Shown: positions 15,592 through 45,069 of the stretch, one piece after another
Position numbering within the stretch: the first letter of the stretch is position 1
How the letters are laid out: the number at the start of each line of letters is the position of its first letter
Source: Minisyncoccota bacterium
Lineage (GTDB): Bacteria > Patescibacteriota > Minisyncoccia > SW-4-49-11
Assembly (NCBI GenBank): GCA_023264145.1
Contig: JALQTA010000001.1
Location: forward strand, 15,465 to 79,464
DNA length: 64,000 nucleotides
Direction: 5' to 3'
Made by a program: the position numbers and the translations under genes
The notes under the pieces: model-generated
The model's input: only the letters and a program-made list of their open reading frames with translations
Databases searched by the model: none
Told to the model about the DNA's origin: nothing

Positions 15592-15620
15592 TTGACAAAT
15601 ATACACTTTTATTGTATAAT
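15592..15620 (+). promoter_or_regulatory. consensus sigma70-type promoter TTGACA-17-TATAAT upstream of rpsP
   Basis: TTGACA at 15592..15597, a 17-nt spacer and TATAAT at 15615..15620, about 40 nt upstream of the rpsP start. Confidence 0.5.
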
Positions 15621-33428: not shown

Positions 33429-33593
33429 AGAATACAGTCTTTAGTAATACGTATAATTATCTGTAATAATATCACAGAATAAGAATAAAGTCAATGTATT
33501 ACGAGGGATAAATATTACCATAATTGCTATCTAGAGATATAATATGATATACTAACAAAAGAAATAATATATAAACATAATTATTATATTTGT

Positions 33594-36940: not shown

Positions 36941-37011
36941 ATAGCTATAGTATAACGTATTTTTAGAATATTGACGATAGTAGGATATATACATAACCTT
37001 GTTGTATACTA

Positions 37012-37040
37012 TTGACAAAATGGCTATTTTATGCTATTAT
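37012..37040 (+). promoter_or_regulatory. island promoter copy 1: TTGACAAAATGGCTATTTTATGCTATTAT (-35 TTGACA, 17-nt spacer, -10 TATTAT)
   Basis: Read directly from the sequence; 28 nt upstream of the island gene A start. Confidence 0.55.
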
Positions 37041-37068
37041 CACACAGAACCTTATGCCTCGGAGGCAT

Positions 37069-37992
37069 ATGTACATTCTCAAACTGATGATGGGGACTCT
37101 GGTCCTCATCGCAACCGCCATCCCGGTTATGGCACAGGGCCTTCCCGTTACCTGCAAGCAGGTGGGAGACAAGGCCGTCATCTCCACCCCCGGTTTTTCG
37201 GGGTCGTGGATGAGCTTCGGATCAGGGCGCTTGAGCCCAGCCTCGACGGAGACGGTAATTCCGAACTTTCGGAATGCACCGTTTCCCTTGGTCGGGAACA
37301 AGGCTGTGAATCCTGGTGATCCGCAGTCTTGGTTCAAGATCGAGAGGGTGACTCCCGAACAAAAGCGTGCCTCCGGGTGTGGCTTTGTTCAGGCAGGGGT
37401 CCTGATCCCGGGAAGCAACTGGACTCCGGTGCAGATCGCGAATACCCGTTCGCAACTTTCTGCGCAGGGAGGAGTGCTCGGAAATCCCGCTACCTTTGCC
37501 GTGGTTCCTGTCCCCGCCGTAGGACCGGCGACCCGTTCCAGGGTGATTATCTCTCGTAAGGGAGATGCCATCACCTTGGAACTGCCTCCTTCCACGGAGA
37601 GCAGTCAATGGGTAGTTCAGCGGGGACAGTCCGGCCCCATTGTTGGACGACCCACCACGGGTATCGAGGGGCTTCATCGCACCTCGACCTTCCTCAGCGC
37701 CTATCAGCGCTTTGAGGCGGTGGTGAAGACCAATCGTGGCTGGCCTGTCACCGTGCCCCTGACTCTTCAGGGTCTGCGGATTACTGGCACCTTGCCAGCA
37801 GATTGGCATTCCTTCGCCATTGTGGCAAGGGGATCAGGGCAGGACGCCTGGTTGCAGGTGGGCCCCGCCATTGAGCAGGGGCTTACCCAGCATGATGGTG
37901 TCCCAGATGCTTTCTGGGGAGGGCGGACGGACAATTCGTTGTTTACCGTTCCTGGGAACAACCCCAACCCGGGGTATTTCTGGACCCGCTGA
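37069..37992 (+). CDS. GC-rich island gene A: secreted protein of unknown function (307 aa, signal peptide MYILKLMMGTLVLIATAIPVMAQG)
   Basis: RBS GGAGG 4 nt upstream of the ATG at 37069 and a clean signal peptide. About 60% GC against a ~30% background. The track ORF 37012..37992 is trimmed to the RBS-supported start. Confidence 0.55.
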   Translation: MYILKLMMGTLVLIATAIPVMAQGLPVTCKQVGDKAVISTPGFSGSWMSFGSGRLSPASTETVIPNFRNAPFPLVGNKAVNPGDPQSWFKIERVTPEQKRASGCGFVQAGVLIPGSNWTPVQIANTRSQLSAQGGVLGNPATFAVVPVPAVGPATRSRVIISRKGDAITLELPPSTESSQWVVQRGQSGPIVGRPTTGIEGLHRTSTFLSAYQRFEAVVKTNRGWPVTVPLTLQGLRITGTLPADWHSFAIVARGSGQDAWLQVGPAIEQGLTQHDGVPDAFWGGRTDNSLFTVPGNNPNPGYFWTR

Positions 37993-38010
37993 TCTTCCGT
38001 TAACAAGTTC

Positions 38011-38045
38011 GCCGCCAGCACCCAGTGCTGGCGGCTTTTTCTTTT
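38011..38045 (+). terminator. intrinsic terminator GCCGCCAGCAC-cca-GTGCTGGCGGC followed by TTTTTCTTTT
   Basis: 11-bp perfect GC-rich stem plus a T-run, 19 nt after the gene A stop. Confidence 0.6.
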
Positions 38046-38072
38046 GACTTGATATATAGGGAAATATATGGT
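38044..38072 (+). promoter_or_regulatory. island promoter for gene B: TTGACT-17-TATGGT (weaker variant)
   Basis: TTGACT at 38044..38049, a 17-nt spacer and TATGGT at 38067..38072; it abuts the preceding terminator T-run. Confidence 0.35.
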
Positions 38073-38106
38073 ATGGTGAAATAGCAAATTATGAGGTTTT
38101 CCTCTC

Positions 38107-38547
38107 ATGCAAAGGCTCATCTGTTCTTTGGTGACTGTGGTTTCATTGTCCGTTCCTTCATCTGCTTTGGCTCAGTATTACCCATATCAAGGAGGTGGTA
38201 CTCAATATGGCCATCAACAGAAAGATCCTGACTATCTGGAACTCCGGTTTCGAGATGGTCGGCGGGTAGTTACATACCCTGTTTCTGGTACTCGACATGA
38301 AGATGTTGCTGCTCAGCACGGTATTGCCTACTGTGAGCAATATTGGAGAGAAGTGGTACCTCCTCCAGGATTCGGATACGCTGCAGTGATCTCTCAGGGG
38401 GCTTGTAGGGGTAGGCAGATCAATCACCAACCGATTAATCGGTACCCCGATCACAAACATCAACGTCGATGGGTAAATCCTGTTCCAAGGCAACATCTTC
38501 CCATTTTGAATGGAGGAAGTAACTGTCTGCTTTTCTGTTTTAACTAG
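38107..38547 (+). CDS. GC-rich island gene B: small secreted Cys-containing protein, paralog of gene C; the 3' end may read through past the original stop
   Basis: RBS GAGG 10 nt upstream of the ATG. Signal peptide MQRLICSLVTVVSLSVPSSALAQ. It shares a ...V/I..P.RPGFGYAA.I.Q C-terminal block with gene C. About 45 codons after that block are lower-GC and have no counterpart in gene C. Confidence 0.45.
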   Translation: MQRLICSLVTVVSLSVPSSALAQYYPYQGGGTQYGHQQKDPDYLELRFRDGRRVVTYPVSGTRHEDVAAQHGIAYCEQYWREVVPPPGFGYAAVISQGACRGRQINHQPINRYPDHKHQRRWVNPVPRQHLPILNGGSNCLLFCFN

Positions 38548-38589
38548 ATGTGTTTCTGTCCCATACAACCGTTTTCTTAATCTCTTCGC

Positions 38590-38623
38590 GCCGGTAGTGG
38601 TAAACTGCCGGTATTTTTTTTTG
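38590..38623 (+). terminator. hairpin (G)CCGGTAG-tggtaaa-CTGCCGG(T) followed by TATTTTTTTTTT
   Basis: 7-8 bp stem with one G-U pair and a 10-T run, 43 nt after the gene B stop. Confidence 0.45.
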
Positions 38624-38633
38624 CTCTAACCTC

Positions 38634-38662
38634 TTGACAAAATGTATAAAATATGCTATAGT
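38634..38662 (+). promoter_or_regulatory. island promoter copy 2: TTGACAAAATGTATAAAATATGCTATAGT (-35 TTGACA, 17-nt spacer, -10 TATAGT)
   Basis: Read directly from the sequence; 27 nt upstream of the gene C start. Confidence 0.55.
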
Positions 38663-38689
38663 GCCATCGTCAACACTTGGAGCAATCCA

Positions 38690-38998
38690 ATGAAGTGCCT
38701 TTCCAGCTTCGCCAGCGTTCTGCTGGCTTCCACCTTGCCCCTCCTCGCCGTGGCTCCCGCCATGGCAACCCCTCAGCCCCAGGAGGGTCGGGGGATGCTC
38801 CCCGATCTCATTCTTCTCAAGTTCGCCGATGGGCGAATGGAGGAGGTGTCCAATCCCTCCCGTGCTGCGGGGGGGCGGCCCCACGAAGTGGTGGCCGCTG
38901 AAAAGGGGATTCCGACGGCCTGCCAAGCGTGGCAGGAAATCCCGTCTCGGCCAGGATTCGGATACGCTGCACAGATCACCCAGATCTGTGGTAACTGA
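38690..38998 (+). CDS. GC-rich island gene C: small secreted protein (102 aa), paralog of gene B
   Basis: RBS GGAG 7 nt upstream of the ATG at 38690. Signal peptide MKCLSSFASVLLASTLPLLAVAPAMA. It ends ...RPGFGYAAQITQICGN. The track ORF 38642..38998 is trimmed. Confidence 0.5.
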   Translation: MKCLSSFASVLLASTLPLLAVAPAMATPQPQEGRGMLPDLILLKFADGRMEEVSNPSRAAGGRPHEVVAAEKGIPTACQAWQEIPSRPGFGYAAQITQICGN

Positions 38999-39021
38999 GC
39001 CTGCTCAGCAATCGTCCAATC

Positions 39022-39049
39022 GCCCCCTGCACTGCAGGGGGCTTTTTTT
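39022..39049 (+). terminator. intrinsic terminator GCCCCCTG-cactg-CAGGGGGC followed by TTTTTTT
   Basis: 8-bp perfect GC stem plus a 7-T run, 23 nt after the gene C stop. Confidence 0.6.
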
Positions 39050-39085
39050 ATTCTCTTATGATACTATTTCAGATGTTGTTATCTA

Positions 39086-39114
39086 TTGACAAAATAGCTA
39101 TTATATGCTATAAT
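39086..39114 (+). promoter_or_regulatory. island promoter copy 3: TTGACAAAATAGCTATTATATGCTATAAT (-35 TTGACA, 17-nt spacer, -10 TATAAT)
   Basis: Perfect -35 and -10 hexamers with a 17-nt spacer; 35 nt upstream of the gene D start. Confidence 0.6.
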
Positions 39115-39149
39115 CTCAACGTTCTGTACATTCTCAACGGAGTTTTCTT

Positions 39150-40280
39150 ATGAAACTTCTCAAACAACTTCTCCTGCCCATTGCAGCATGTGCTGCGGTG
39201 TTTGGAGGAATGCCTGTGGAAGCGCAGGTTGAATCGCTCTCCCCTCGAGAGCAACTCCAGCAGCTGCGTGCAATGCGCAAGGCTGCTGAAGCTCGCAATG
39301 CGAATGCGGGTGAGGTGCAACAGGTGTCCCAACCTGTGAATCCTCCCGTCCAGCAAGCTCCACCGGGTCCACCGCCCGTAATGGCGGCAATTCCGGCCCC
39401 CGCTCCCGTGCTGGCCACCCCTCCTCAAAAGGAGCAGGGGCCTTCCACTTCTGGTATCGTGGTCCCTCCTCGGGACTCGATTCCCCAGCAGGGAGAGGGG
39501 CAGTGGAAGCCCCTCCGAGTTCACACCGAATTCCGTTCCCTTCCGCGGAATACGGCTTTCGATGTGAAGGCTGAGCTGGGCACCCAGAATGGGTGGATGT
39601 TTGGGGCTCAGTTCGTGACTCAGTCTGGATCTTTCACAGGTGAGAACCTGAAGGAGATCTGGAAGGGGTCCTATACGGATACCCGGGCAGAGTTCTGGGG
39701 AGGCCGTCATTGGTCCTCCCAGGATTCTAAAACCCGGTGGTCGGTGAACGCCTTTGTGCGGCAGCTGACACATACCGATTCTGGTGAAGGCAGGAGTCGT
39801 CCGGGCAATCCGGATTCCTACACCTACACCTGGAGGAATCCGGTGAAGCCCCTCACCCAAGTGGGTGTGAGAGCCAGGGTCGAGCATGACCTCATCCGGA
39901 CGGAGAGTCAACAGCTCACCGTTCACCTCAAGGGTGAGGTGGCTGCCACTGTCTCAGGACAGTCTGGCTTGGCCTACGATGTCCAGACAGGCGTCTGGTA
40001 TCGGACGGCACGGATCGAAGCCTATGCTGAAGCCGGTGTGAATAATACCGGCGGGTACGCTAATGGTTACGGCCGTTATTACCTGACTAAGGGTGGTCAG
40101 CTCAAGCCCTTCGTGGAGGTGCGGGGTGAGGTTGGTACTGGCTACCACAACGCCCAAGTGGGCGCTGGTGTCCAGGTGGGGATCGGCAAGAACGCTTACG
40201 CCGAAGGTGTGCTTGGCTACAACGCTGGCACCTCTGGCAATGGCATGGCTGTCATCACCCGGTTCGGTTTCCGATTCTGA
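39150..40280 (+). CDS. GC-rich island gene D: secreted Pro/Gln-rich-linker protein with a beta-barrel-OMP-like C-terminus (...AVITRFGFRF)
   Basis: RBS GGAG upstream and signal peptide MKLLKQLLLPIAACAAVFGGMPVEAQ. A PxxP/Q-rich spacer is followed by about 250 aa of Gly/Tyr/Thr-rich sequence with alternating hydrophobics. It ends in the aromatic C-terminal Phe motif typical of outer-membrane beta-barrels. Confidence 0.55.
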   Translation: MKLLKQLLLPIAACAAVFGGMPVEAQVESLSPREQLQQLRAMRKAAEARNANAGEVQQVSQPVNPPVQQAPPGPPPVMAAIPAPAPVLATPPQKEQGPSTSGIVVPPRDSIPQQGEGQWKPLRVHTEFRSLPRNTAFDVKAELGTQNGWMFGAQFVTQSGSFTGENLKEIWKGSYTDTRAEFWGGRHWSSQDSKTRWSVNAFVRQLTHTDSGEGRSRPGNPDSYTYTWRNPVKPLTQVGVRARVEHDLIRTESQQLTVHLKGEVAATVSGQSGLAYDVQTGVWYRTARIEAYAEAGVNNTGGYANGYGRYYLTKGGQLKPFVEVRGEVGTGYHNAQVGAGVQVGIGKNAYAEGVLGYNAGTSGNGMAVITRFGFRF

Positions 40281-40364
40281 CGCAAAATAGAAACGATAGT
40301 AGCTATCTAATCGGAGTAATCTGAGAAGAGAAGTTGCCTTGACCGTTTCTGGTTTTGAATATAT

Positions 40365-40392
40365 CCCTCGTTGTTCGCAGCGAGGGTTTTTT
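40365..40392 (+). terminator. hairpin CCCTCG-ttgttcgcag-CGAGGG followed by TTTTTTATTT
   Basis: 6-bp stem (extendable with one mismatch) plus a T-run, 85 nt after the gene D stop. Confidence 0.45.
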
Positions 40393-40467
40393 ATTTGTTG
40401 AAAAGGTTAGACAGAGAGGGGATAATATGATATTGTTAATATAGATTATCTTATTGTTAATAAGTCT

Positions 40468-41649
40468 ATGAAAATTGCTTTTATAGGGCAAAAAGGGATT
40501 CCTGCTCTTGGTGGTGGTGGAGTTGAAAATTATGTTGACCATATTGCAGTAAGACTTGCACAGCGAGGACATGAAGTTATTGTTTACACTCGTAAAGCAT
40601 ATGCTCCGGAGGGTATGTATAAACATGTCAAGGTTATCGCGACATCTGGTATTCCTACCAAGAGTTTAGATGCGATTACGCATACCTTTACGGCATTATG
40701 GAAGAGTTTTTTTATCTCTGATTTAGACGTTTTGCATGTCAATTCAGTAGGGCCTGCTTTATTGATTCCTTTTGCACGGTTTGGATTTTTGTTAAAATAT
40801 TTAGTTACGGGTTCATATACAAAGGTCGTATTTACCTTTCATAGTGCTGATTGGTATCATGGGAAATGGAATTTATTTGCAAAATCTATGCTCAAATTAG
40901 GAGCCTGGACTGGTTGTGTCTTTGCGGATGAAGTGATTACGGTATCAAAGAGTTTACGGTATCTTGCCTATAAACAATTTGATGTACGAGCTACCTATAT
41001 CCCTAATGGTACGGTATTTAATCATATTACCTCGGATTCAGAGTTAGCTCAATTTGGACTCAAAAAACGAGGGTATATTGTTTTTATTGCCCGCCTCATT
41101 CATCATAAAAATGCTCATATTTTGATACAGGCCTATCAAAAAATGGCAAAAAAATATGGAAAAAAGCTTGTGATTGTAGGAGGAAATTCCCATACTCCTG
41201 AATATGAGAAATATCTGCATGAATTAGCTCAAGGGGATAAGAATATTATTTTCACAGGGCATCAATCAGGGAGAACGTTAAAGCAATTATTTGCCAATGC
41301 GGCTATTTATGTATTACCCTCATCGTCTGAAGGCTTATCTATTTCTCTCTTGGAAGCTGCAAGTTATGGAGTACCTGTGGTTGTCTCTAATATACGAGAA
41401 AACCGTGAAATTGTAGGAGATCTTGGACATATTGCGGAAGTTGATAGTGTGGTCTCATTAGCTCATACGATTGAAGGAGTTTTGATGGATTATCGGGGAG
41501 CCTTAGAATTAGCAGATATGTTGCAGGCAGAAATTAAATATCATTATGCCTGGAATAATATTGTAAGAGCTTTAGAAAATGTATATAAAAGAGATTCAAA
41601 TCAATATAAAGGAGCTAGTATACAAGTTACTCCAGCTTTGAAATATTAA
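40468..41649 (+). CDS. family 1 (GT4-type) glycosyltransferase
   Basis: N-terminal IPALGGGGVENYV and C-terminal LPSSSEGLSISLLEAASYGVPVV motifs. Confidence 0.65.
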   Translation: MKIAFIGQKGIPALGGGGVENYVDHIAVRLAQRGHEVIVYTRKAYAPEGMYKHVKVIATSGIPTKSLDAITHTFTALWKSFFISDLDVLHVNSVGPALLIPFARFGFLLKYLVTGSYTKVVFTFHSADWYHGKWNLFAKSMLKLGAWTGCVFADEVITVSKSLRYLAYKQFDVRATYIPNGTVFNHITSDSELAQFGLKKRGYIVFIARLIHHKNAHILIQAYQKMAKKYGKKLVIVGGNSHTPEYEKYLHELAQGDKNIIFTGHQSGRTLKQLFANAAIYVLPSSSEGLSISLLEAASYGVPVVVSNIRENREIVGDLGHIAEVDSVVSLAHTIEGVLMDYRGALELADMLQAEIKYHYAWNNIVRALENVYKRDSNQYKGASIQVTPALKY

Positions 41650-41653
41650 TAGT

Positions 41654-42940
41654 ATGGCTCGATTACTTGCTAAAATGATTCCGCTATTCAAATGGACTAT
41701 TATTACTTTGATAGGGTTAGTTTTGGTGATAGTCATATGGGGATGGGGAGCGTATGGAAAAGAAATTCAATTAGTACAAGCATTATCTCAGGATACTGAG
41801 ACCACCTATTTAGTTTTATTTCAAAACACTTTAGAATTACGTCCTACTGGTGGATTTGTAGGGAATTTTGCAGAGTTAACCATAGAAAAGGGGAGAATAA
41901 AAAATTATACGATTTATAATACAAATGCCTTTGATTTTGGAAAGCCAGGTATTGATTCCCCTCAGCCATTTAAGGATATGCTTGGGGTACAACAAATTCA
42001 GATGAGAGATGGGAATTGGTCTCCTCATTTCCCAGCTACGGCTGAGCAGATGATTTCTCTTTACGAATTACAAGGGGGAGAAAAAGATATTACGGGGGTA
42101 ATAGCAGTTAATGCTTTGCTGTTACCAGAAGTATTGAGAATTATGGGGCCAGTGACGGTGGATGGGATAGATGAAGAGTTGACAGCAGATAATGTCTTAT
42201 TAACGATTCAATATGAGTTGAATTTTGGATTTATGGAGAGGGGAGTAGATAGGCGTGATCGAAAAGAACCAATTCGGGATCTTGCAGCTCAATTAGAAAG
42301 TAAAATATCTACAACCTCACCTATGAATTTGTATCGGTTAGCAACAATGTTAGTAGATCAAGCGGATAAAAAACAGATTTTAATGTGGAGTAAGGATGAT
42401 AGGGTACAAAAAAGAATTGATAATTTAGGATGGAATGGAGTAATCGATACTGACACGGTAGGAGATTATTTTATGTTAGTGGATGCTAATCTAGGCGCTC
42501 TTAAAACAGATTATTATATGGAGAGAGATATTATGAAAACGGTTGATGAGTGTGGAGATAAGTTATGCTCTAAAATACGTATTATCTATCGTAATACCGC
42601 CAAAACAGCATCAGAATTAAATAATGACTATAAATCATATAGTCGAGTCATATTACCAAAAGATGCCTTTATTACGAATATTACCGGGATAGAATCTCGT
42701 CCAATACCTATAGATTATAGTACTGCCTATAATAAAAAATTTGCAGGATTTGAGATTAATGTTCCCTTTAATGGCCAGAGAGAGGTTATTGTGGAATATA
42801 CGATGCCTCAACTGAAGGAATATACCTTGGACATTCAAAAACAGTCAGGAATTGTAGGATATAATTTTGAATTAGAGTATCGACCAGGGAATAAAAAGGA
42901 GAAGGTATTTATTGATTCCGATTGGAGTTGGAAAGAATAA
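41654..42940 (+). CDS. DUF4012-domain membrane-anchored protein
   Basis: N-terminal TM, then the LELRPTGGFVGNFAEL motif that I recognise as the DUF4012 hallmark; commonly linked to surface-polysaccharide loci. Confidence 0.45.
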   Translation: MARLLAKMIPLFKWTIITLIGLVLVIVIWGWGAYGKEIQLVQALSQDTETTYLVLFQNTLELRPTGGFVGNFAELTIEKGRIKNYTIYNTNAFDFGKPGIDSPQPFKDMLGVQQIQMRDGNWSPHFPATAEQMISLYELQGGEKDITGVIAVNALLLPEVLRIMGPVTVDGIDEELTADNVLLTIQYELNFGFMERGVDRRDRKEPIRDLAAQLESKISTTSPMNLYRLATMLVDQADKKQILMWSKDDRVQKRIDNLGWNGVIDTDTVGDYFMLVDANLGALKTDYYMERDIMKTVDECGDKLCSKIRIIYRNTAKTASELNNDYKSYSRVILPKDAFITNITGIESRPIPIDYSTAYNKKFAGFEINVPFNGQREVIVEYTMPQLKEYTLDIQKQSGIVGYNFELEYRPGNKKEKVFIDSDWSWKE

Positions 42941-42942
42941 TA

Positions 42943-45069
42943 TTATTCAAAATGAATGTTTTCTTCAAAATAGGATAATCGAGATTTCAGTTCAGGATAT
43001 TGATTAAGGGTATAATCTTGAGATAACACTTCTTGAGATAATGATTTTGTCTGTACAATAATATCGTGATTCAACAGAGCTTCCATGCTAATATCAGAGA
43101 GTCCGGATTGATTGGAGCCAATAAATTGACCAGGTCCTCGTATTGCTAAATCTTTTTCTGCTAGTTCAAATCCACTAGTGGCTTCTTCGATAGCCTTTAG
43201 CCTTTGATTCATAGAGACTTCTTGATCACTTGTTTCGAATAAAAAGCAAAATGATTGATGTTCTCCTCGTCCTACTCTTCCTCTGAATTGATGTAATTGA
43301 GCGAGTCCAAATCTTTCAGCTCCTTCTACCACTATAATACTTGCATTCGGAATATCAATACCAACTTCAATGACTGAAGTTGCAACCAGAATATCAAATT
43401 TTCTCTGTTTAAAGTCCTGGATAATGCGGTCTTTTTCGGCAGTTTTCATTTTTCCATGCATCATTTGTATACGTAAATCAGGAAAGATATTGGTGGATAA
43501 ATCGTGAAAACTTTCTTCCACGGATCGTATATCTGATTCTTGATCAGCCTCAATTTTGGGACATACTACAAAGGCTTGTCTTCCTGATTGAATATGCTTA
43601 CGAATAAATGTATAGGCTTCAGTTCTTTTAGATGGAGGCACTAACTTTGTTTTAATGGCTTTTCTTCCTGCAGGATATTCATTTAATAAAGAAACATCCA
43701 AATCTCCATATATACTTAATGCTAAGGTTCTCGGGATGGGGGTGGCTGTCATACTTAAAAGATGAGACATAGTTTCTTTATTACTATGGGAATGTTTATT
43801 CATCATGGTTTGTAATTCAGAGCGTTGTTTTACTCCAAATCGATGTTGTTCATCAACAATAGTTAAAGCAAGATTATGATACTCAAGGCTATCTCGGATT
43901 ACGCTATGAGTTCCGATAATAATATGTACTTGGCCTCTCGATATTTTTTTTAATAACTCTTTTTTAGGAATAGTGATCCAATAATCAAGATGAGGATCAG
44001 TAGAGATGCGAGACTCTTTGGCAGTAATAAGTGCAATTACAGGGAGATTGGGGATATGAGCGGTGAGTTTGGTAATACTCTCAAAGTGCTGGGTGGCTAA
44101 TATTTCAGTAGGAGCCATTAATACAGATTGATAGCCATTATAATGGGTATTAATCATAGCAATAGTAGCTACAATGGTCTTTCCGGTTCCTACATCTCCC
44201 TCTAAGAGTCTATTCATCGGAGAAGGTTTGGAGGTATCATGTAGAATATCTTGAATTGCAGTATGTTGGGCTTGAGTAAGATGAAAAGGAAGATCTTCGA
44301 TAATAGTTTTAATAGTATCATGATGTATCGTAAGATTAGGAGCGTATTTGGATTGAAACATCATTTTTTGTTTTGCAATGTATAATTGCATAATAAAGGC
44401 TTCTTCAAAAATTAATCGGTTCTTTGCCAGGTGTATTTGTTCAACGGTTTGAGGATAATGTAAATAGCGTATGGTTTCATTAATACTGAGAATATTTGCT
44501 TTCCTGAGTATCCATTCGGGTAAAGTTTCAGGTAAGATACCAAATTGTTTGAGCGCTAGATCAATACGATAACGGATCATTTTAGAACTAATACCAGCAG
44601 TTTCAGGATATATGGGGACTAATCTATGGGAATGTAATAATATTTTATGAGGTAATATTCTTTCAAAACTCATCTGGGTGAGGGGTGTTTTGGCCGTATG
44701 TTTAATAATAGCTGATAGAGCATAGGTTGAATTAACCTGAAGAGATTCAAAAAGAAGTTTTTGATTAAATAGGGTAATAGTCAGAGTGTCACTAGTATCT
44801 TGAATGGTAATTTCGGCGATGGTTAATTTGCGTCCTCGTAGACGAGTTTGTTTTTTATGAATAATCGTGACTTCAAATACAACTGCTTGCCCATCAGGAA
44901 TGGTATTAATTTGACTGAGAGTTTGAAGATGAGTATAATTAACAAATTTTTTAGGAGGATACAGAAGTAATTGGGCTAAGGTGAATATACCTAATTTATG
45001 CAAACTATGCACAAGACGGGGGGTAGGTTTTGGTTTTAGATTTGTAATTGAGGTATAGAGAACATTCAT
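42943..45069 (-). CDS. recG: ATP-dependent DNA helicase RecG
   Basis: 708 aa with an N-terminal wedge/OB region. Helicase motifs are DVGTGKT (Walker A), DEQHRFG (DEQH) and QLHQFRGRVGRG. Confidence 0.85.
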   Translation of the reverse strand: MNVLYTSITNLKPKPTPRLVHSLHKLGIFTLAQLLLYPPKKFVNYTHLQTLSQINTIPDGQAVVFEVTIIHKKQTRLRGRKLTIAEITIQDTSDTLTITLFNQKLLFESLQVNSTYALSAIIKHTAKTPLTQMSFERILPHKILLHSHRLVPIYPETAGISSKMIRYRIDLALKQFGILPETLPEWILRKANILSINETIRYLHYPQTVEQIHLAKNRLIFEEAFIMQLYIAKQKMMFQSKYAPNLTIHHDTIKTIIEDLPFHLTQAQHTAIQDILHDTSKPSPMNRLLEGDVGTGKTIVATIAMINTHYNGYQSVLMAPTEILATQHFESITKLTAHIPNLPVIALITAKESRISTDPHLDYWITIPKKELLKKISRGQVHIIIGTHSVIRDSLEYHNLALTIVDEQHRFGVKQRSELQTMMNKHSHSNKETMSHLLSMTATPIPRTLALSIYGDLDVSLLNEYPAGRKAIKTKLVPPSKRTEAYTFIRKHIQSGRQAFVVCPKIEADQESDIRSVEESFHDLSTNIFPDLRIQMMHGKMKTAEKDRIIQDFKQRKFDILVATSVIEVGIDIPNASIIVVEGAERFGLAQLHQFRGRVGRGEHQSFCFLFETSDQEVSMNQRLKAIEEATSGFELAEKDLAIRGPGQFIGSNQSGLSDISMEALLNHDIIVQTKSLSQEVLSQDYTLNQYPELKSRLSYFEENIHFE

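Follow-up and report, generated by a model that had tools for sequence, protein, structure and literature searches.

Among promoters of the sigma-70/sigma-A class, those with an extended -10 element (TGn) are well described, and the corresponding 'TRTG' -16 region is common in Gram-positive bacteria. Reiterated strong promoters are known from the early regions of phages, such as the tandem A1-A3 promoters of T7 and the early promoters of T5 and SPO1. Phages also carry morons, promoter-open reading frame (ORF)-terminator units of deviant composition located between phage genes. In Protochlamydia amoebophila, the lgr ('large G+C-rich genes') are described as having a much higher GC content than the AT-rich genome around them (PMC2216083). 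Here, we describe a promoter module reiterated ahead of three of the four genes (A-D) of a GC-rich island located in a 64,000-nt stretch of contig JALQTA010000001.1 (the window, to which all coordinates refer unless stated otherwise). We consider it likely that these modules are long-conserved near-consensus sigma-70/sigma-A promoters of a cluster of four single-gene units, and that they are ancient paralogues with one episode of copying from A to D.

The island modules share with sigma-70/sigma-A extended -10 promoters the same TTGACA hexamer, 17-nt spacing, (A/G)TGnTAnnnT element, AT-rich upstream sequence and short leader with GGAG. They differ from this class in that the AAAT after the -35, the TGC (mostly TGA in the host) and a TGTTG block at a fixed distance are also fixed across species. 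Like phage early promoters, of which unrelated contigs provide examples (see below), they are near-consensus TTGACA-N14-TGCTATAAT promoters spaced 200-1500 bp apart, each with its own small gene. However, the island is chromosomal, is flanked by housekeeping and cell-envelope genes, is absent from viral collections and drives secreted proteins of anomalous GC content. Morons are similar in being autonomous promoter/gene/terminator units with a composition unlike that of their neighbours, whereas the island is not in a prophage, is not a recent insertion and occupies one slot in all relatives. With the lgr genes it shares the presence of GC-rich genes in an AT-rich genome, but the lgr products are unrelated proteins with leucine-rich repeats from another phylum, and no shared promoter architecture is known (PMC2216083). 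The literature on promoters and β-barrels of the Candidate Phyla Radiation (CPR) and on GC-rich islands yielded nothing specific.

Promoter modules of genes A, C and D

The preliminary description of the window had reported three 29-nt promoters ahead of genes A, C and D, and all three were recovered exactly in position and sequence (Table 1). When up to three mismatches were allowed, the pattern proposed there matched only these three sites in the 64 kb on both strands, with 0.03 expected, and none of 100 shuffled sequences gave three or more. The -10 hexamers agree with TATAAT at five or six of six positions, and the sites score 11-12 of 12 against the overall TTGACA/TATAAT consensus; they are the three best promoter matches across 33-45 kb. 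The hexamers are separated by 17 nt and lie on the coding strand at leader distance from the gene, with 28 nt (A), 27 nt (C) and 35 nt (D) between the end of the -10 and the start codon and a GGAG(G) ribosome-binding site (RBS) in each leader. The sequence ATGCTAT, in which TG lies one base 5' of the -10, is shared by the three sites and by almost every orthologue. A repeat search revealed that the repeat unit is really about 45 nt, longer than the 29 nt initially described, with 84% identity between the A and D modules and 69% between A and C; in the A module of the window, TGTTG is located 12 nt upstream of the -35. By all sequence-level criteria, the three elements would be classified as sigma-70/sigma-A extended -10 promoters, and their mutual likeness is mostly the sigma-70/sigma-A consensus itself, to which a later copying from A to D contributes (see below).

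A position weight matrix (PWM) trained solely on the A, C and D modules of relatives scored the three sites at 39.3 (A), 36.0 (C) and 38.7 bits (D), with the next best site in the window (both strands, 128 kb) at 6.8 bits or less, a gap of 30 bits. Both the pattern scan and the PWM thus confine the module to the island within the window, where the A/C/D motif is not a generic host flavour. As a class, the promoter architecture is the ordinary one of the host. The rpsP promoter (15592-15620; TTGACAAATATACACTTTTATTGTATAAT), which combines TTGACAAAT with TATAAT, matches the consensus at 12 of 12 positions, as does a second site, TTGACAAATAGAGGGGTAATACGGTATAAT, the top-scoring match in the sequence preceding nusB. 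Like rpsP, the ribosomal-protein gene rpmE (33466-33494, minus strand) has a strong promoter in the general style of the modules. Elsewhere in the window, host promoters mostly have a weak -35 together with a TATGATAnnT extended -10.

At least eight Paceibacteria/Parcubacteria relatives (L006, L009, L012, L013, L014, L135, L137 and L139) carry the A, C and D modules in the three corresponding places. In every relative compared, TTGACAAAAT-N9-ATGCTA-N3-T precedes A, C and D, and each position has its own spacer/-10 signature (GGCTGTTTTATGCTACCAT for A-type, TGATAAAATATGCTATAGT for C-type and AGTGTTTTTATGCTAGTGT for D-type modules). Orthologous sites of the A module were found in L009, L012, L013 and L014, and those of the C module in eight relatives. 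At non-consensus positions, orthologous modules are 0.63-0.78 identical and paralogous modules 0.49 within a genome and 0.48 between genomes, which argues that the modules are old paralogues under purifying selection. General concerted evolution (gene conversion) among the three promoters was considered and rejected, since paralogues are as dissimilar within genomes as between them.

The extent of conservation was mapped as a footprint, defined for every window position as the best ungapped 24-mer match in six relatives (chance level about 14/24). Promoters and terminators reach 19-23/24, compared with the 14/24 expected by chance for the coding sequences of A, B and C, which have turned over completely. 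The footprint peaks at 23.3/24 at 39072-39095, across the -35 of D, and no DNA of the island is better conserved than the upstream block GATGTTGTTATCTA found there. The promoter of gene B is kept in all relatives (21.3/24), and conservation also extends to the terminators of A, B and C. Between the window and its relatives, RecG, RF1 and the right-hand glycosyltransferase show 75-82% amino acid identity, and the four-fold sites of RecG and the glycosyltransferase are only 0.26-0.46 identical, which corresponds to saturation; against this background, the footprint of the promoters indicates selective constraint. The D protein is 54-74% identical to those of the relatives, down to 28% in L135, and the A and B proteins are about 28-34% identical to their counterparts or have undetectable ones. 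In L135, a more distant relative, the units are arranged in the order B-C-A'-D with the left glycosyltransferase on the other strand (L135 5900-9200), and each reordered unit retains its own module promoter and terminator. Well-kept module copies are also present ahead of the downstream glycosyltransferase in L006, L009, L013, L014, L135, L137 and L139. The module is therefore not strictly specific to GC-rich genes, as this glycosyltransferase of the relatives has a normal GC content.

In the window, the spacer and -10 of the D module (AGCTATTATATGCTATAAT) match A-type modules (L012 A, AGCTATTTTATGCTATTAT) and not the D orthologues, and the D leader contains GTACATTCTCAA, which corresponds to the first codons of A (MYIL...). 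The A promoter, leader and first codons were therefore once copied ahead of D. The same D allele and D N-terminus are present in L137 (L137 5500-5600), whose D protein is 74% and RecG 75% identical to those of the window. Because L137 shares the allele and its D protein is only 74% identical, the copying was not recent. Gene C of the window matches only that of L139 (4450-4656; 70% amino acid identity), and the flanks of L137 and L139 are no nearer to the window than those of other relatives. The island alleles are thus mosaic among lineages.

According to the standard promoter model, sigma region 4 would recognise the -35 TTGACA, region 3 the TG of the extended -10 and region 2 the TATAAT-like hexamer, and the upstream block (TGTTG / TTGTTA-N4-TTGACA) might be contacted by the alpha subunit of RNA polymerase or by a regulator. 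The housekeeping sigma holoenzyme would then transcribe four monocistronic units, each ended by an intrinsic terminator, so that the 3.3-kb GC-rich cluster would be split into four units. Each unit is predicted to have a leader of 20-30 nt with a GGAG RBS and to encode an exported protein with a signal peptide, one of them a β-barrel.

Several observations weigh against this interpretation or limit it. The 'near-perfect' match noted in the preliminary description fits this genome more than the clade, where the D orthologues have a poor -10 (TAGTGT). The transcription starts, the strength of the promoters and the independent expression of the genes are predictions from sequence. The AAAT after the -35, the C of TGC, the spacers and the TGTTG block are conserved beyond what sigma contacts need. 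Finally, the scan for the motif covered a fraction of this genome (about 64 kb), and further copies may lie elsewhere in it; in the flanks of the relatives (about 150 kb), the full pattern recurs solely at the glycosyltransferase just downstream.

A scan of metagenomes for TTGACAAAATN9ATGCTA identified at least 120 contigs with a single match, and among the matches listed none encodes A-D or flank proteins. In IMG/VR, three matches to the 45-nt pattern were found, which are unrelated jumbo-phage promoters. The unrelated contigs L043, L046, L070, L025 and L079, as well as the 230-kb IMG/VR contig L141, carry 4-7 reiterated TTGACA-N14-TGCTATAAT promoters. These have A-rich tracts on their upstream side, and a small gene follows each of them, in a layout like that of a phage early region. 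Reiteration of such promoters is a known design and no oddity in itself, and taken alone the island promoters are textbook sigma-70-type elements. To our knowledge, almost nothing has been established about transcription signals in Paceibacteria. The practical use of the modules is that they define, through sequence comparison, a strong promoter and a strong terminator for these uncultivated bacteria, and they might be employed as parts or annotation anchors.

Regulation, composition and origin of the island

Since non-consensus positions of the modules are conserved, the promoters may be regulated and not constitutive, as the preliminary description predicted. This conservation would fit an UP-like element, a role in setting promoter strength or the action of a regulator. 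As a tentative possibility, which we rate clearly below the reading as plain sigma-70/sigma-A promoters, the conserved non-consensus parts may be an activator or repressor site, and the four or five genes a small regulon. The D block at 39072-39095 with the highest footprint of the island points in this direction, as does TGTTG. This sequence is found exactly 12 nt upstream of the D -35 in eight of nine loci (CGTTG in L137), and it occupies the equivalent place ahead of A in two loci (the window and L135) and ahead of the downstream glycosyltransferase in five. Furthermore, TTGTTA-N4-TTGACA forms a 10-bp direct repeat, the geometry of OmpR/PhoB-type boxes, and the orthologous spacers have kept their 0.63-0.78 identity despite saturated neutral sites. 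On the other hand, no regulator gene was found in or adjoining the island, the C promoters are without TGTTG, AT-rich upstream blocks and spacer composition can tune basal strength without any factor, and the upstream hexamer can also be taken as the -35 of a shadow promoter, TTGTTA-17-TATTAT.

A -35-like hexamer is found exactly 10 bp upstream of the real -35 of D (TTGTTA-N4-TTGACA, 39076-39091), with equivalents at A (TTGTAT-N4-TTGACA, 37002-37017) and at the glycosyltransferase (TTGAAA-N4-TAGACA, 40398-40413). On sequence grounds, these hexamers could represent a direct-repeat binding site or a shadow promoter.

The island (37.0-40.3 kb) has a GC content of about 57%, against about 34% for the rest of the window, and holds four plus-strand genes, A-D, all of which start with signal peptides. 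Its left flank encodes RF1, L31, Wzz, Wzy and a GT4 glycosyltransferase, and its right flank a GT4 glycosyltransferase, DUF4012, RecG, TrmD and type IV pilus genes. Misassembly or a chimera as the cause of the GC jump was rejected, as both junctions and the interior were found again in separate assemblies of four other samples (L001-L005), and the junctions also in all relatives. GC content at third codon positions (GC3) is 0.62-0.71 in A, C and D, 0.16-0.32 in eleven host genes and intermediate (0.36) in B. In every relative, too, A, C and D keep a GC3 of 0.62-0.71, compared with 0.16-0.28 for the host. The leucine codon TTA, which accounts for 44% of leucines in the eleven host genes, never occurs in A, C and D. 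The island is GC-rich in every relative (L006, L009, L012-L014, L135, L137 and L139) while neutral sites have turned over, and its composition is therefore maintained and no relic of a recent transfer. D is under purifying selection, its codon positions 1 and 2 being 0.78-0.87 identical compared to 0.52-0.61 at position 3. The four-fold sites of D (39150-40280; 0.52-0.61 identical) have diverged less between species than those of RecG and the glycosyltransferase in the flank (40468-45069; 0.26-0.46), which suggests synonymous constraint or a more recent exchange of the island.

The AlphaFold model of residues 120-376 of D is an all-β barrel of the transmembrane type with about 14 strands and a predicted local distance difference test (pLDDT) score of about 90, and the predicted structure shows the closed antiparallel arrangement of this fold. 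The protein begins with the signal peptide MKLLKQLLLPIAACAAVFGGMPVEAQ... and ends with ...RFGFRF, a typical β-signal in which F376 is nearly invariant. In having a signal peptide and a C-terminal aromatic residue (...GFRF), D resembles the 14-strand barrels of the FadL/TodX/PorV type. It differs from them in showing 8-10% sequence identity and no Pfam match, in its long, disordered, Pro-rich linker at the N-terminus and in the absence of an N-terminal plug from the model. In addition, the host group of D is described as monoderm, a description that comes from the few CPR members with a described envelope (PMC8871954). The barrel could insert into an unrecognised outer layer of the cell itself or into the outer membrane of a host cell.

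A further reading, which we regard as doubtful, is that the promoters express lineage-specific, fast-evolving surface or secreted proteins whose GC-rich codons are actively maintained, with D residing in a membrane that the cell lacks or in an unrecognised outer layer. In that case, the codons of this AT-rich, presumably monoderm CPR bacterium could be kept GC-rich in these genes by a force such as selection acting on the mRNA or translation of exported proteins with very high expression, or GC-biased gene conversion at a recombination hot spot, and D may serve as a pore in the outer membrane of the diderm host cell of an epibiont. Whichever the force, the base composition of the island has resisted AT pressure for longer than synonymous saturation, and it offers a natural case for local GC content off the genomic equilibrium. 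The promoters flag a conserved cluster of orphan secreted proteins, probably expressed at a high level, beside cell-envelope and pilus genes, which makes its products candidate cell-surface or host-interaction proteins of epibiont-like bacteria. It is this compositionally anomalous orphan cluster with its β-barrel, rather than the promoters themselves, that is of chief interest.

The distribution of the genes bears on whether the island was acquired horizontally. D has 40 homologues in 5.8 billion proteins, with five representatives in a library of 1.84 billion proteins, and A has six homologues in the 5.8 billion. Every D homologue with a readable context is in the same slot between two glycosyltransferases, and no homologue of A-D was found outside this slot in the 5.8 billion proteins or the 1.84 billion representatives, nor any relative of D in the viral contigs of IMG/VR. 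A scan of GTDB genomes identified four metagenome-assembled genomes (MAGs) labelled Candidatus Paceibacteria, Parcubacteria group or 'uncultured bacterium'; two of the four are presumably bins from Lake Mendota and one from Lake Zurich. From these labels and the lake origins, the host is a freshwater CPR (Patescibacteria) lineage.

If the units were morons, or a horizontally acquired island of foreign promoter-gene-terminator cassettes brought in by a phage or mobile element, the promoters would have come with their cargo. Each unit does have its own promoter and terminator and deviates in GC content (57% versus 34%) and GC3, the unit order differs in L135, and the alleles are mosaic among lineages. 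Nevertheless, we consider this origin improbable. There is neither a mobile context nor patchy presence or a donor: phage, integrase and transposase genes, tRNA and flanking repeats are missing from the borders, the island is present at the same slot in every relative, and no homologue occurs outside the slot in the 5.8 billion proteins or the 1.84 billion representatives, or in viral contigs. Moreover, the AT-rich promoters fit the style of the host and not the composition of the cargo. No integrase or phage family was found among the Pfam-annotated genes of the flanks, where some ORFs have no Pfam match, and no repeats bordering the island were found. An integron cassette array was also rejected: the cassettes have their own promoters, the inter-gene hairpins are only terminators with T-tracts, and no integrase is present within 8 kb on either side.

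The preliminary description had attributed the three copies to recent duplication of an expression module or to construction from a common part, and the idea of a cassette engineered or synthesised from a single promoter part belongs to the same line of thought. This explanation draws on the 84% identity of the A and D modules over 45 nt, the GTACATTCTCAA common to their leaders and the tidy layout of promoter, RBS, ORF and terminator for each gene. What survives of it is one real transfer of a promoter and leader from A to D, which is not recent, since the A-like D allele is common to the window and L137, whose D protein has diverged to 74% identity. The remainder is contradicted by the occurrence of the modules at the same positions, with ortholog-specific spacers, in no fewer than eight diverged genomes of natural, lake-metagenome origin whose synonymous sites are saturated, and by an identity of paralogous copies that is no higher inside one genome (0.49) than across genomes (0.48). 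In addition, the sequence was recovered in independent assemblies of four other samples, and a protein divergence of 54-82% excludes that the relatives are contaminants of one construct. We therefore find recent duplication or engineering very improbable. A fortuitous similarity of AT-rich intergenic sequence to the consensus, for which the 34% GC of the host and 61 promoter-like sites in 12 kb versus 37 expected might speak, is rejected as practically negligible given 0.03 expected sites, no shuffle out of 100 with three, the 30-bit gap to the next best PWM site and the retention of the sites across species.

Gene units, terminators and leaders

The coordinates of the promoters, genes and terminators are listed in Table 1. 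The arrangement of promoter, short leader, gene and terminator described initially was found for each gene, and it predicts that the units are transcribed independently. The four intrinsic terminators are strong (-15 to -24 kcal/mol, z -3.2 to -5.6). The weaker promoter variant assigned to gene B was likewise confirmed, and it not only abuts the upstream terminator, as previously noted, but overlaps the T-tract of the gene A terminator.

Table 1. Promoter modules, genes and terminators of the GC-rich island and its downstream border
Feature	Coordinates	Strand	Description
Promoter module, gene A	37000..37044	+	Core 37012-37040, TTGACA, 17 nt, TG-extended TATTAT
Leader hairpin of A	37053..37069	+	Contains GGAGG RBS, ends at start codon; -7.7 to -7.9 kcal/mol
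Gene A	37069..37992	+	307 aa (amino acids), signal peptide, GC3 0.66, no known family
Terminator of A (intrinsic)	38011..38045	+	11-bp stem, -23.7 kcal/mol, z -5.6; 20-22/24 kept in relatives
Promoter of gene B	38044..38077	+	TTGACT-17-TATGGT (38044-38072) or TTGATA-17-TGgTATGGT (38049-38077)
Gene B	38107..38547	+	146 aa, signal peptide, GC3 0.36, paralogue of C
Terminator of B (intrinsic)	38590..38622	+	-15.4 kcal/mol, z -3.2; conserved
Promoter module, gene C	38622..38666	+	Core 38634-38662, TTGACA, 17 nt, TG-extended TATAGT
Gene C	38690..38998	+	102 aa, signal peptide, GC3 0.71
Terminator of C (intrinsic)	39022..39052	+	-20.2 kcal/mol, z -5.2
Promoter module, gene D	39074..39118	+	Core 39086-39114, TTGACA, 17 nt, TG-extended TATAAT, 12/12
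Gene D	39150..40280	+	376 aa, signal peptide, Pro-rich disordered linker, predicted C-terminal β-barrel, GC3 0.62
Terminator of D (intrinsic)	40365..40396	+	-14.9 kcal/mol, z -5.1
Degenerate fourth 45-nt module copy	40396..40440	+	TGTTG-N7-TAGACA-17-TGaTATTGT; 60% identity in register

The degenerate fourth copy of the module precedes the glycosyltransferase gene at 40468-41649, which has the GC content of the host. A search of A-D against Pfam gave no significant family; a sub-threshold match of A to T2SSC (E 0.011) was not relied on. The AlphaFold2 model of A, built from a six-sequence alignment, is of low confidence (mean pLDDT 58.7).

A hairpin equivalent to that in the A leader (5-7 bp, around the RBS) is present in seven relatives with different stem sequences, and these differences look like compensatory changes. 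The hairpin may contribute to mRNA stabilisation or to gating of translation.

In the 3' untranslated region of D, the non-coding block GTTGCCTTGACCGTTTCTGGTTTT (40332-40356) is located just before the terminator and is kept at 21-22/24 in L009, L013, L014 and L135. A search of the island against Rfam, including this block, gave only sub-threshold noise. In the same four relatives, the GTTGCCTTGACCGTTTCTGGTTTT block is followed by an ORF of 63-68 aa with host-like GC content, which is absent from the window.

The proteins encoded by B and C share 38% amino acid identity (E 9e-15). Their genes have in common a stretch of 21 identical nucleotides, CCAGGATTCGGATACGCTGCA (encoding PGFGYAA), at 38365-38385 and 38951-38971, which suggests a small gene-conversion tract.

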